IMG/VR virus record: IMGVR_UViG_3300009159_000035
Source of the DNA: a virus
DNA: 64,000 nt
Direction: 5' to 3' (one strand)
Part shown: positions 1-4,384 of the stretch, piece after piece
Layout: the number at the start of each line of letters is the position of its first letter
Position numbering within the stretch: the stretch's first letter is position 1
The notes under the pieces: generated by a model
Seen by the model: the letters and a program-made list of their open reading frames with translations, nothing else
What the model was told of the DNA's origin: nothing
Database searches by the model: none
Program-made: the position numbers and the translations under genes

Positions 1-140
1 CAAGGCTGGCTAGCCTGGTTGGGTAGAGCCGGGCTGGCTGCTGGTACTCCCTAGATCAGGTACTAATCATGGGCCTGCCCTAGACCCTGGCCTAGTTGTA
101 GCCTAGCTGGCTCTGATAGAAATAGGCTAGCGTGTTGGCC
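1..140. repeat. GC-richer non-coding tract with recurrent CTAG/GGCT/AGCC motifs
   Basis: About six CTAG plus many GGCT/AGCC words in 140 bp of an otherwise AT-rich genome; no ORF in track. Confidence 0.4.
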
Positions 141-347
141 AGTATTTTTTGTTTGTTTATTATAATAATATAGGTAGACAGTAGAGTATTTAAACTTTAG
201 TGGGTAGGGGCGCACTCTGGTCTTTATGACCCCAAATATCCACGGCTAGTCTGGGCTGGATTTAGGTATATTAAGCCTATCAAAGTAGAAACAATGTCTC
301 CCCAGTTTCTTGTTGCCTGCAGGCAAAGGATTTATCAGGAGCAATTT

Positions 348-420
348 AGTTAGGTAGCTTAAGTGGCCAGAGCAATACACTGATAAAGTAAAGATACCCG
401 TTCAAATCGGGTCCTGACTA
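348..420 (+). tRNA. tRNA-Ile(GAU), degenerate anticodon stem
   Basis: Acceptor AGTTAGG/CCTGACT plus A73; D arm GCTT..GAGC; loop CT-GAT-AA with only 3 of 5 stem pairs; T arm ACCCG-TTCAAAT-CGGGT. Confidence 0.65.
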
Positions 421-637
421 CACGTTCCGTAACAGACAACGGATAGTTCAGCTCTGAACGATGAGAAATGGTGTGATGACCATATGGGATTGCTAATAGG
501 ACAAAGTTCTATTCAGATTAACTATCTGCACCAAAAGAGCTTACTAGTTGTGATTAGCTCAGTAGTTTATTCCTAACCTAAGGTAATGCTTGGGGACAGC
601 CACAACACCTGTAAGTTGGATAAAGTAGGGTGTTACA
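421..637 (+). ncRNA. Structured RNA between two tRNA-like elements
   Basis: Successive hairpins TCCGT/ACGGA, GTTCA/TGAAC, ATGGT/ACCAT, AATAGGA/TTCTATT, CAGAT/ATCTG, GTTGTG/CACAAC, CCTAAG/CTTGGG, ACACCT/AGGGTGT. Confidence 0.55.
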
Positions 638-638
638 T

Positions 639-753
639 AGTCAGGTGGCGGAATTGGTAACGCACATTCAACGAGAGTTATGCAGACTCGCCTGTAAAAT
701 CAGTAAGTTGTATGGTGGTATAAATGCCCGTTCGAATCGGGTCCTGACTACCA
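639..753 (+). ncRNA. tRNA-like RNA with anticodon/variable region replaced by a 62-nt insert
   Basis: Perfect acceptor AGTCAGG/CCTGACT-A-CCA; D arm GGCGGAATTGGTAACGC; T arm GCCCG-TTCGAAT-CGGGT; no canonical anticodon arm. Confidence 0.65.
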
Positions 754-762
754 AAAATAGAA

Positions 763-1002
763 ATGATGAAAGCAATACTTGAATTTGACCTGGCTGAGCC
801 TGCTGATGTTGAAGCCCACCTGCGCTGTGTACAGTCCTTGGAGCTGGTGCTCTTTGTACTTAAAATAGAAGAGGAACTTAGGGCTAAACTAAAACACGGC
901 GAGCTCAGTGAATGCGAATGGAAAACCCTTGACCGCTTCAGGGAGTTCTTTTACTTAGAGCTTAATGCACGTGGCCTTAACATTGACAGCTTGGTTAGCT
1001 AG
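763..1002 (+). CDS. hypothetical phage protein
   Basis: 79-aa ORF, MKAILEFDL start typical of small phage proteins. Confidence 0.7.
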   Translation: MMKAILEFDLAEPADVEAHLRCVQSLELVLFVLKIEEELRAKLKHGELSECEWKTLDRFREFFYLELNARGLNIDSLVS

Positions 1003-2049: not shown

Positions 2050-3666
2050 ATGACAAAGTATATTAAACTATTTGAAAATTTTATACCCGAAGCACGCGAA
2101 TCTGATTTAGAAGGTTTGGCTGATCTGGGACTTGGGCCAGCTCAGTTTGAATGGGAGGTAGAATACGATGAGGACATGCAAAATATTGAAAAGTCTGATA
2201 GGCAAGAAATTTATGATTATGAATCCCCAACCGGTGCTCACATTACTAGGGTTAAAGGTGTAATTGAAGCATTTCAAACCCAATTAGACATTTACTTTAG
2301 CAATGAAGATAAAATTCAAATGCATGTTAAATTCTCACAACACCCTGGAGACAAGGGTCGAGCCGCTTTTCAAGTTAAGCATAATAGTAAATGGCACTCA
2401 GTATTTAACCCAATAGTTAGTTATGATAAAGCTGAAGAATGGTTACAGAAATGTGAAGACTCAGGCTCAAGCGTTCAGCCAATATTCTATTATTACGAAG
2501 AGTTTTTAAAAGCCTTATCTAATGATGAAGATTACCAAATTTATTGGACAATGGAAAATCAAGGTTTAAATATTACAACCAATGAAATGATGAAGCCTGA
2601 CTATACTCGACTACAGTTATTCATTAGAGCTTTACGTGATTTACCAATTGACTCAAATATAATACTTAAAATACGCCAACTAATTAATAATCTGATAATT
2701 GATCCTTATCATAATAGGATTTCTATCTTAACTGAAGTAGACCGTGGCTTTTCGGATATTCCAGGTATTAGTGAATTGGTTGCAAAATTTAGCAGACCAC
2801 TTACTGAAGCTCGTGAGATTGAGCCACATGAAGAAGCCGAGTTAGCCAATATGAAAGACACAGTTAATGACATCAATGGCTTAATTGAATTGGGGTTAAT
2901 TGATGATTCAGGTTATCGAAAAGAGATGGTTGCTATCAGTAAAGCCTTTAATAAATTTGTTAAGGGTTTAAACTTAGATCTTAAAGATCAAGCTGATCTT
3001 GACTTGTTAAAATCGCTTGGCGAAAAAGCAGGCCAAGATTCATTAATGGGATTAAGTTTAGCTGGTGGAAAAGCACTCGCCACAAAAGGTTTACATCTGG
3101 TTTCAAGTCCAACTCAATTGGCTAATGGCTCATTGATATTTTCAGTTGATCCAAATTACAGACGTAGCGATGGCTGGGGTATTGGATTTTTTCCTGGCCC
3201 AAAGGTTATTCGGCGTATGACCCCAACACAAATTAATCTTGGGGTTTGGTCAAGAACTTTAGGCTCAATGGATATTGCAATAAAACATTTTAGAGACACC
3301 ACTAGTAATCTGGATTTTTATAATAAAGCCATGTTATGGGCAGCTGACAATATTGATTTTGACCATGCGGTAATGTATCCTGAAAAGCATGTGTGGAAAT
3401 ATTATAAAAAGAAAAAAGAAACCCGGGATAAACGAACTGAATCAGATGACTTACGTGTACAAGCAGACGCAATTATGTCAGAAGTTAAGTTTAGCCCGTG
3501 GCAATCACCAATCGGCCGGCTTGCTGCACTTGAAAAATATATTGAAGCTTGGAAATTAAGACTTAAAGCTGCTCAGCTTGATAATAACGAAAAAGCCATA
3601 ATTGATGCAAAGGACCAAATTGCACATATGGAACTTGATATTGCTAACTCAAAGAACCGCAATTAA
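2050..3666 (+). CDS. putative internal head protein, multi-module
   Basis: MTKYIKLFENFIPEAR; internal LTEAR; two Lx(D/E)LGL motifs. Confidence 0.65.
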   Translation: MTKYIKLFENFIPEARESDLEGLADLGLGPAQFEWEVEYDEDMQNIEKSDRQEIYDYESPTGAHITRVKGVIEAFQTQLDIYFSNEDKIQMHVKFSQHPGDKGRAAFQVKHNSKWHSVFNPIVSYDKAEEWLQKCEDSGSSVQPIFYYYEEFLKALSNDEDYQIYWTMENQGLNITTNEMMKPDYTRLQLFIRALRDLPIDSNIILKIRQLINNLIIDPYHNRISILTEVDRGFSDIPGISELVAKFSRPLTEAREIEPHEEAELANMKDTVNDINGLIELGLIDDSGYRKEMVAISKAFNKFVKGLNLDLKDQADLDLLKSLGEKAGQDSLMGLSLAGGKALATKGLHLVSSPTQLANGSLIFSVDPNYRRSDGWGIGFFPGPKVIRRMTPTQINLGVWSRTLGSMDIAIKHFRDTTSNLDFYNKAMLWAADNIDFDHAVMYPEKHVWKYYKKKKETRDKRTESDDLRVQADAIMSEVKFSPWQSPIGRLAALEKYIEAWKLRLKAAQLDNNEKAIIDAKDQIAHMELDIANSKNRN

Positions 3667-3676
3667 TTTTATATGT

Positions 3677-3702
3677 AAGGCTGGAAATTCCAGCCTTTTT
3701 TT
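3677..3702 (+). terminator. intrinsic terminator
   Basis: AAGGCTGGA-AAT-TCCAGCCTT plus T run. Confidence 0.8.
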
Positions 3703-3733
3703 ATGTGATGATAGTACATTAATTTAAAAACAA

Positions 3734-3952
3734 ATGGAAGCACAAACCAAACCCACTAAAACTCAAATTGCAATTGATCAAGCCAGATTAATAATGGAAA
3801 GCTTTGATGCAGGTGGAGCGCTAACCGTTGGTTATGACCAGTCTACTTATACCTTAACCTCTAATCAAATGTCAACCATTGCTGGAGCTCTGTATTTGGC
3901 AGATTGCGAAATTCAAGACATATTAGACAGACTATCAGTATTAGAGGATTAA
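3734..3952 (+). CDS. hypothetical protein
   Basis: 72-aa ORF. Confidence 0.6.
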   Translation: MEAQTKPTKTQIAIDQARLIMESFDAGGALTVGYDQSTYTLTSNQMSTIAGALYLADCEIQDILDRLSVLED

Positions 3953-3961
3953 TAAACAGAT

Positions 3962-4384
3962 ATGATTGCTGAAAACCGAAAGGCCAAATACGAATATGAA
4001 TTTATTGAGAGGTGGACCGCGGGTATTTCGCTAGTCGGGTCAGAGGTCAAGTCAGTTAAAGCCGGGCACCTTGATTTTACTGGGTCTTGGTGCGAATTAC
4101 GAAATGGAGAATGCTGGATTAGGGAACTGTATATTAAAGAATCAGCTACTGCTTTTAGCCACCAGGATAAACGAGAGAGGCGCTTACTCTTAACTAAAAA
4201 GGAACTAAAGAAGCTGGATAAGCTGATGGACAAGGGCCTCACGATCGTTCCAGTATCAATTCAGGTTAATCCAAAAGGTTTAATTAAGGTATCGATTGCC
4301 TTAGCCAAAGGTAAAAAACTTTGGGACAAGCGCCAAGTTATAAAAAATAGAGATGCTGACCGAGCTTTATTAGTTTCAGGTTAA
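3962..4384 (+). CDS. smpB: SsrA-binding protein SmpB
   Basis: IAENRKAKYEY, AGISLVGSEVKS, RRLLL, GLTIVP, AKGKKLWDKR. Confidence 0.95.
   Translation: MIAENRKAKYEYEFIERWTAGISLVGSEVKSVKAGHLDFTGSWCELRNGECWIRELYIKESATAFSHQDKRERRLLLTKKELKKLDKLMDKGLTIVPVSIQVNPKGLIKVSIALAKGKKLWDKRQVIKNRDADRALLVSG

Follow-up and report, generated by a model that had tools for sequence, protein, structure and literature searches.

Elements shaped like tRNAs that punctuate longer transcripts are known from several settings, among them mitochondrial transcripts, the spacer tRNAs of rRNA operons, the tRNA-linked small RNAs of murine gammaherpesvirus 68 and the synthetic "tRNA scaffold". In phages, small stable RNAs occur within tRNA clusters. 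Phage T4 (AF158101) carries rnaC (species 1, 139 nt) and rnaD (species 2, 119 nt) beside tRNA-Arg, and the annotation of phage T5 (AY543070) lists RNA1, RNA2 and RNA3 as "tRNA-like stable RNA" and RNAI, III, IV, 2H and X as "stable RNA", all of them "with unknown functions". The present analysis concerns a locus of this kind, positions 348–753 of a 64,000-nt stretch of viral DNA from the IMG/VR record IMGVR_UViG_3300009159_000035, which is referred to below as the window. An earlier note on this DNA had described two tRNA-like elements bracketing a structured spacer, and had explained them either as tRNA mimics releasing a novel non-coding RNA (ncRNA) or as a 406-nt molecule of the size of a transfer-messenger RNA (tmRNA) and a non-canonical partner of SmpB. 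We consider it likely that the locus comprises three separate phage RNA genes and not one tmRNA-like molecule, probably co-transcribed ahead of the open reading frame (ORF) at position 763. These are a tRNA-Ile(GAU)-like gene (348–420), a 218-nt ncRNA (421–638) and an anticodon-less tRNA-like RNA (639–753), all on the plus strand. The last two represent well-supported new RNA families, namely a tRNA mimic with a self-complementary loop and a pseudoknotted ncRNA of the 218-nt type. No description of either family was found in full-text searches of the literature; both may be listed, without names, among the 10,006 candidate viral RNAs of a bulk catalogue (PMC10690425).

The RNA at 639–753 possesses tRNA-type acceptor and T arms, as had been supposed, and also a D arm; 60 nt occupy the place of the anticodon and variable arms, and the anticodon arm is absent. 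The 7-bp acceptor stem AGUCAGG/CCUGACU (639–645/743–749) encloses a leucine-type D arm (648–663), which is almost identical to the D arm of the window's own tRNA-Leu (GUGGCGGAAUUGGUA(G/A)ACGC). It is followed by an 8-bp arm (665–672/707–714) leading through an internal loop to a 4-bp hairpin (675–678/686–689) with the loop UAUGCAG (679–685). An 11-nt linker, GUGGUAUAAAU (715–725), connects the 8-bp arm to the T arm (726–730/738–742), and the molecule ends with the discriminator A750 and an encoded CCA (751–753). In the window, neither ARAGORN nor Rfam calls this element. Its homologues score 40–45 bits with the Rfam tRNA model, solely as tRNAs with an insertion of at least 40 nt.

Two exact-pattern scans of IMG/VR found homologues of 639–750 in about 53 viral contigs, comprising 38 distinct variants, and in the GenBank phage MW202828 a segment 77% identical to it was found, whose acceptor and T stems differ by compensatory changes. 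In the alignment of the 38 sequences, 97.9% of cells are paired, 21 of the 27 base pairs change on both sides and all five helices covary; none of 500 shuffles reached the observed pairing, and slid controls paired at 31–42%. The covariance model R1 assigns 113.7 bits to 639–750, within the range of the true members (89–132 bits) and above that of other RNAs of this general shape (27–60 bits). The window element carries the five helices and the GUGGUAUAAAU linker, and its loop is self-complementary only in the UGCA core. In the family, the internal loop has GA on the 5′ side and RMCCAUAAAGAGA, or a longer form, on the 3′ side, and the hairpin loop comprises 7–8 nt. The base pair at position 3:70 is UA in 31 members, UG in five, and AU and CG in one each. 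The CCA is encoded in the window only; the relatives read ACAA, ACUA and the like at this place.

The genomic context of the family varies. In L006 (L numbers denote loci of other contigs), the RNA follows a tmRNA and a tRNA-like gene, in L002 it precedes tRNA-Val, and in small phages it lies near the terminase gene. No conserved protein neighbour was found, the largest real cluster being terminase at 10 of the 53 loci; the top-ranking neighbour "clusters" are spurious ORFs running across the RNA itself. Three members (L035:3151–3288, L036:168–294 and L056:1316–1447) feature an extra hairpin of 19–30 nt within the D loop, which is also present in RNAs of the same general shape outside this family (L028, L029).

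The loop that tips the 4-bp hairpin differs widely among the members of the family, yet it is self-complementary in all of the variants. The loop hexamers include CUGCAG, UGUACA, CUCGAG, AGUACU, UAGCUA, CACGUG, CUGCGG, CGUGCG and GUGCAU, and in the variants UAGGCCA and UAGGCCG self-complementarity is limited to the GGCC core. The 3′ hexamer of the loop is self-complementary in nine of 13 distinct forms (binomial tail 2 × 10⁻⁹) and the central tetramer in all eight distinct forms (binomial tail 1.5 × 10⁻⁷); in a control register, one of 14 was self-complementary. Three of the loop forms pair with themselves through G·U only, hence the constraint acts on the RNA and not on the DNA. Since a hexamer cannot pair within a single 7-nt loop, a loop–loop (kissing) or extended-duplex homodimer is the simplest reading, and the most likely partner of the loop is its counterpart on another molecule. 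The dimerisation site (DIS) hairpin of HIV-1, a kissing-loop site with a 6-nt palindrome in its loop, offers a comparison. In both cases the loop hexamer varies in sequence and yet stays self-complementary, as expected of a homodimer. Unlike in HIV-1, the loop of the 639–750 family tips a tRNA-shaped RNA of a DNA phage, is 7 nt long with the palindrome on its 3′ side, and belongs to a dimer that is so far a prediction.

The ncRNA at 421–638 had been described in the earlier note as a spacer of 217 nt with about eight hairpins; the eight helices of the comparative model agree with that count, and the length is corrected to 218 nt. It is a conserved, pseudoknotted member of a phage ncRNA family that, judged by its homologues, is widespread and has a typical length of about 200–230 nt. 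The 5′ half of the family architecture consists of P1, AUAGU, P2, GAUGAGAAA and P3 with the loop GUGAUR, and a pseudoknot joins the P2 loop to the three or four bases that follow P3. The 3′ half contains a variable middle of at least four forms, the conserved UAUUCCUAAC, P5 (usually capped by a GNRA loop), GGACAGCC and P6. In the window, the corresponding elements are P1 (426–430/439–443), P2 (446–450/455–459), P3 (468–472/479–483, loop GUGAUG), the pseudoknot between 452–454 of the P2 loop and 486–488, the variable middle (489–567), UAUUCCUAAC (568–577), P5 (577–582/589–594) and P6 (604–609/629–634) with a conserved 19-nt loop. As for the pseudoknot proposed earlier, the loop had been chosen correctly (P2 loop GCUC, 451–454), while covariation points to GGG at 486–488 as its partner and not to AGAGCT at 535–540. 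The latter sequence forms a local hairpin with 555–559, and L242 carries a compensatory change there (GAGUG/CACUC).

The alignment of the family (A5) contains 46 distinct full-length sequences, which align well at both ends. In this alignment 97.1% of cells are paired, compared to 30–45% in slid controls; both partners are changed in 17 of the 27 base pairs, all four of the pseudoknot among them, and six helices covary. A scan of all columns for further long-range pairs was too noisy for use. The covariance model R2, built from these 46 homologues, finds the window element at 418–638 with 189.5 bits, all family elements being present in a single copy, and finds 59 full-length members in viral contigs at 122–210 bits. 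It also detects about 11 RNAs having the 5′ module only. At L303, L321, L332, L364, L301, L302, L306, L320, L335 and L371, this module (P1, AUAGU, P2, GAUGAGAAA, P3 and the pseudoknot) is joined to quite different 3′ parts, with R2 scores of 41–80 bits, and one of the alternative 3′ parts contains GGCAAUGCGAAAAUCCU...GGAAGCAAC. The 5′ module seems, on the sequences compared, to be common to several RNA classes.

The family came to light only with three patterns from conserved parts, CACAACACCTGTAAGTTGG and two others, which in separate searches identified 11 loci in IMG/VR, 94 loci in metagenome contigs and 86 loci in IMG/VR, many of the last on contigs of 100–320 kb; the pattern GGTGTGATGACCATATGGG had no match in IMG/VR. 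The spacer gave no blastn match in the early loci or in the records of three relatives. Relatives in contigs assembled from public runs keep 458–489 and 592–635 and replace the middle. Contigs covering 335–583, 440–596 and 452–651 are present in three lake metatranscriptome libraries from three studies. None covered 652–2500 or the tRNA-like gene 639–750; no conclusion is drawn from these gaps, since neither absence nor ends, strand or level can be read from assembled contigs. No Rfam family matched the ncRNA in window 150–1000 (E up to 10), its homologues at six loci (E up to 1) or the copy at L203 (E up to 10); the families without a match include the T-box leader, RNase P RNA, YrlA, GOLLD and ROOL as well as the skipping-rope, DUF2693-FD and salivarius-1 tRNA mimics. 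The motifs GAUGAGAA and AAUUAGGGUG, which we take to resemble T-box motifs, received no support from the T-box model, and a likeness to T-box or RNase P RNA suggested by such motifs was dropped, neither Rfam model supporting it. A tmRNA-like interpretation of the ncRNA, suggested by AUAGU, the pseudoknot and a UAA in a conserved motif, was also rejected, as the elements stand in the wrong order, no frame is conserved and the insertions and deletions are not multiples of three.

The borders of the ncRNA copies link them to the tRNA-like elements. Among 48 distinct copies with the exact 3′ motif, 32 begin directly after a tRNA-like 3′ end (...CCUGACUA|CACGUUCCG), and 22 of the 46 copies with a recognisable 3′ domain also end at the 5′ end of the next tRNA-like element (AGUCAGG). 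The remaining copies with a 3′ domain end in P6 plus a terminator-like U-run or in other sequence.

The upstream element of the window, 348–420, is called tRNA-Ile(GAT) by ARAGORN and scores 54.9 bits with the Rfam tRNA model (RF00005), above the threshold of 29 bits, with a cloverleaf that includes an anticodon arm. Its acceptor stem lies at 348–354/413–419, the anticodon at 382–384 and the discriminator at A420. The anticodon loop is CUGAUAA, and the anticodon stem has three standard pairs and two A·A mismatches, so that the label "degenerate" given to it previously is a fair one. The two flanking elements do share near-identical 3′ ends, as had been noticed: 397–422 and 727–752 differ at two positions only, namely the first base of the T stem and an R in the T loop. 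On model R1, the tRNA-Ile-like element scores 38 bits, through the shared upper body only.

This shared upper body extends far beyond the window. A search for a T arm followed by CCUGACUA with a matching 5′ strand, across all fetched loci, revealed 236 distinct elements of 69–259 nt, often in arrays of two to seven, whose inserts fall into about 185 unrelated clusters. Their common frame, of which no published account was found, consists of the acceptor AGUCAGG/CCUGACU, the discriminator A73, the leucine-type D arm GCGGAAU(U)GGUARACGC, a standard T arm and a variable insert. Every one of these features is found in 639–750, including an unrelated insert that replaces the anticodon and variable arms. 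In the tRNA-Ile-like element, the acceptor (with one U·G pair), the T arm and A73 are those of the frame, but the D arm is of class I and the anticodon arm is like that of a tRNA, so that this element is a partial member of the superfamily. The exact 22-nt 3′ end of the frame occurs in at least 120 IMG/VR contigs and in 18 contigs of metagenome-assembled genomes (MAGs), mostly of Bacteroidota. An origin of the frame from host tRNAs was rejected after ARAGORN, run on 10 of these 18 MAG contigs, called a tRNA at none of the matched sites; the 18 contigs look like binned phage or prophage DNA. The anticodon arms of the 71-nt element of L117 and the 73-nt element of L143 are of textbook form (Lys CUUUUAA and Ile CUUAUAC, respectively), and both elements may be working tRNAs with one common acceptor stem.

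Relatives of the locus were found via the adjacent ORF 763–1002 (81–89% identity). At the same syntenic site, L059 carries five other tRNA-like cassettes behind a homologous leader. L058:832–1000, at the site of the window's cassette, contains a small hydrophobic ORF (MIEIIVIASFFAIIAALLYLIYLG...) whose 3′ end enters a remnant of the T arm and acceptor. This arrangement shows directly that coding and RNA cassettes replace each other at the constant ends. In the proposed mechanism, the constant tRNA-like ends would also serve as recombination handles at which cassettes are swapped between phages. The 218-nt ncRNA travels largely independently of the frame elements, only one of 192 frame-bearing loci carrying it as well.

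A model for the processing of the locus follows from general knowledge of tRNA maturation. RNase P and the tRNA 3′ processing enzymes recognise the minihelix formed by the acceptor and T arm, and tRNA-flanked RNAs are released by such processing in mitochondria and in the tRNA clusters of phages T4 and T5. Since these enzymes recognise the minihelix, excision by host enzymes and release of the 218-nt RNA can be inferred. Host RNase P would make the cuts at 347/348 and 638/639, whereas the ends at 420/421 and after 750 would be formed by a 3′ endonuclease or by trimming and the addition of CCA. These cuts would mature both tRNA-like RNAs and free the 218-nt RNA with defined ends. Frame RNAs that lack an encoded CCA would have it added, and the 639–750 RNA would pair through its loop with a second molecule to give a two-headed dimer. 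The earlier proposal that tRNA punctuation releases a novel ncRNA is supported by the covariation, by the 32 of 48 starts and 22 of 46 two-sided borders given above and by the RNA-library contigs, the cleavage itself being a predicted step. LeuRS (leucyl-tRNA synthetase) does not read the anticodon, and it may be speculated that the leucine-type D arm and A73 have been retained through charging of the frame RNAs by this enzyme. An extension of this idea would be an RNA toolkit acting via the translation machinery, with an upper body charged by LeuRS regardless of the insert, a chargeable two-headed mimic and the 218-nt RNA, with its GNRA-capped helix and receptor-like UAUGG/CCUAA pair, as a new tRNA-binding or catalytic RNA that works on these mimics or together with them. 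We regard this extension as a long shot.

The second explanation of the earlier note, in which 348–753 is one molecule closed by pairing of AGUUAGG (348) with CCUGACU (743–749) and serves the phage SmpB, now appears exceedingly improbable. The acceptor strands are interchangeable, which makes the pairing physically possible, and the minimum-energy fold of 348–753 uses it; that fold, however, is no better than those of shuffled sequences (z = −1.33). The three parts are each complete in themselves, and in other phages each of them occurs alone, independently of the others. There is a resemblance to tmRNA (RF00023) and its partner SmpB in the tRNA-like acceptor/T-arm domain on a larger non-tRNA body, in the nearby pseudoknots and in the presence of an SmpB gene in the same phage, and phage tmRNAs occupy the same kind of tRNA-rich region (L006, L198, the close relative G042). 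Unlike tmRNA, 639–753 has a D stem, and its family occurs independently of SmpB. The lack of a G3–U70 pair and of a tag, already noted from the sequence, was upheld: position 3:70 is U–A in both 348–420 and 639–750, no tag frame exists, ARAGORN calls no tmRNA, and RF00023 (gathering score 47) has no match in window 150–1000 at E up to 10. The phage SmpB gene announced about 3.2 kb downstream is real (3962–4384, plus strand, outside the RNA cassette; Pfam PF01668, 149.5 bits), and the whole 66.5-kb IMG/VR record contains no tmRNA, only the T loops of ordinary tRNAs matching RF00023 at 12–14 bits. This record, which starts at window position 324, is rated only about 25% complete, and since it covers about a quarter of the genome, the phage probably encodes a canonical tmRNA in the missing part, to judge by its relative G042. 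The SmpB of the latter is identical at 137 of 139 residues, and it has a canonical tmRNA (111 bits, ARAGORN tag ending EELLAA) about 76 kb from the SmpB gene; this combination of a near-identical SmpB with an ordinary tmRNA speaks against a special partner at 348–753. SmpB is absent from 47 of 50 contigs with the 639–750 family, the other three all being near relatives of the window, and from all 10 genomes at least 90% complete; among contigs with the ncRNA it is absent from 44 of 50 and present in one of five nearly complete genomes. The resulting frequency of 6–12% is somewhat above the author's impression for phages generally.

The other rival explanations concern individual parts of the locus. 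It is unlikely, in our estimate, that the 218-nt element is a cis-acting leader (riboswitch or attenuator), in which P6 and the U-run would serve as an expression platform and no RNA would be released. At L203, L197, L305, L329, L360 and L367, P6 is indeed followed by 7–11 U and by an ORF within 35–60 nt, and the 5′ pseudoknot module, combined with different 3′ parts, resembles an aptamer in its conservation. However, no conserved gene lies downstream, as 40 ORFs that come first after the ncRNA belong to 34 unrelated clusters, which argues against a gene-specific leader role. A tRNA-like gene and not an ORF follows about half of the copies, the sequence of the 19-nt P6 loop is strongly conserved, which is not usual in a simple terminator, and no known riboswitch or T-box model matches. 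Still less can be said for a 30-residue micro-protein encoded at 484–576, similar to the micro-ORFs between tRNA-like elements of other phages, and we hold it to be very improbable. An ATG-started ORF of 30 codons exists, its stop codon lies within a conserved motif (UAUUCCUAA ends the ORF) and L058 carries a small ORF at the same site. The start codon, on the other hand, is located in a pseudoknot strand and is not conserved (AUGAG, AGGGA, AAGAG or AGGUGG in relatives), the frame is closed within seven codons in the L205 group, length changes of the middle region are not divisible by three, and the helices of this region show compensatory changes. It is likewise very unlikely that 639–750 and its relatives are decoding tRNAs whose short introns or oversized anticodon arms are removed or tolerated. 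The Rfam scores of the homologues as tRNAs with a large insertion would agree with this, as would the perfect anticodon loops of a few frame elements (Lys UUU, Ile UAU and the window's Ile GAU). ARAGORN, however, calls tRNAs in just 42 of the 236 frame elements, with scattered and partly unused anticodons, and the apical loop of the 639–750 family varies freely while remaining self-complementary, with no conserved anticodon. The junction is unlike a bulge–helix–bulge site, and the insert covaries as a helix extending the arm. Group I introns of bacterial tRNA genes are far longer than the inserts of 20–110 nt.

The reading of the locus as three RNA genes with tRNA-like punctuation has its own weak points. 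Single-sequence folds are no stabler than shuffles for 421–638 on both strands (z = −0.79 and −0.56) or for 639–753 (z = −0.40); the comparative data were decisive here. Many ncRNA copies without a flanking tRNA-like element use their own terminator, so that the punctuation is optional and not required. The RNA-library evidence consists of assembled contigs and not of reads; these show neither ends nor strand and may contain DNA. In the window loop UAUGCAG, self-complementarity is limited to the four bases UGCA, which are bordered by an A·G mismatch, and a dimer of this RNA would, by its sequence, be weaker than in most relatives. The chances are roughly even that 348–420 is a plain working tRNA-Ile built on the frame.

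Upstream of the first tRNA-like gene lies a conserved leader (265–347, plus strand) with a palindromic hairpin at 313–326. By blastn, it is 86–89% identical to the leaders of L058 and L059, and in L059 the hairpin is altered on both strands (GCCTGCAGGC to CCGTGCACGG). The same segment contains the putative promoter GGTATATTA (265–273, plus strand), on which the sigma-70 consensus scan made no call; a scan of 1–1600 for promoters and terminators gave nothing useful. Window positions 1–323 lie outside the numbered contig, yet they are homologous to the upstream region of relatives. Repeats of GGTACTCCCTAG(T/A)CC, spaced about 40–60 nt apart, precede the RNA cassette in the window (1–120) and lie in the corresponding parts of L058 (380–580) and L059 (1930–2120); they resemble iterons or a site of packaging or replication.

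Several other phage loci collected in this analysis carry unusual RNAs. The complete 69-kb phage genome L006, with terminal repeats, encodes at 3181–4063 a canonical tmRNA (tag ...NEYKVAA) followed by four consecutive tRNA-like frame RNAs. It contains a tmRNA but no SmpB gene and so would depend on host SmpB. In L198 (IMGVR_UViG_3300046008_000687), a tmRNA-type 3′ end (GGACGAGGGUUCGAAUCCCUCCAGCUCCACUA, 3059–3090) is located about 180 nt downstream of an ncRNA copy; it scores only 24.6 bits with the Rfam tmRNA model, no matching 5′ acceptor strand was found, and it may belong to a broken, split or permuted phage tmRNA. On the minus strand of L002 (IMGVR_UViG_3300042485_002236), a 235-nt RNA resembling class A RNase P RNA (1366–1600) lies between tRNA-His and tRNA-Met in a phage array. 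It spans the whole model at 49.7 bits (E = 2.4 × 10⁻¹²), under the gathering score of 100, with GAGGAAACUCAGGAC and ACAAGAUCCUGGUUAC resembling the P4 strands, and could be a phage-encoded minimal RNase P RNA.

The stable RNAs of the T4 and T5 tRNA clusters have long been unexplained, and the locus described here suggests a far larger and more organised phenomenon in uncultured freshwater phages. It provides two testable families, a tRNA mimic whose self-pairing loop constraint predicts a dimer and a pseudoknotted RNA of 200–230 nt found in many large phages, and both now have alignments and covariance models. Should their functions be discovered, the families could show by what means phages exploit the enzymes with which the host processes or charges its tRNAs, and they might also supply compact natural scaffolds for RNA expression in bacteria.

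The stable RNAs of T4 and T5 are the closest known analogues in kind, not in sequence. Similar to the window, T5 has stable RNAs interspersed with true tRNA genes, some of these RNAs being tRNA-shaped and extended by additional sequence, and model R1 aligns RNA1 and RNA2 over their whole length as tRNA-like molecules that contain an insert. The scores of 14–18 bits, however, are below the 20–29 bits of real T5 tRNAs, R2 finds nothing, and there is no sequence kinship; T5 also has neither a constant frame common to many RNAs and unrelated phages nor a family with a self-complementary loop. In T4, rnaC and rnaD are likewise small stable RNAs in a tRNA cluster, and rnaC has a tRNA-type T arm and an acceptor-like 3′ end, as in the frame RNAs, but scores only 16 bits with R1 and none with R2, with another acceptor sequence and no leucine-type D arm. 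The locus shares with the punctuation systems mentioned at the outset the use of tRNA-shaped elements. In those systems such elements attract RNase P and 3′ processing enzymes, by which RNAs beside or within them are set free and stabilised. What sets the locus apart is its setting in double-stranded DNA phages of bacteria, where one leucine-tRNA-like frame carries hundreds of different RNA inserts and also brackets free-standing structured ncRNAs.

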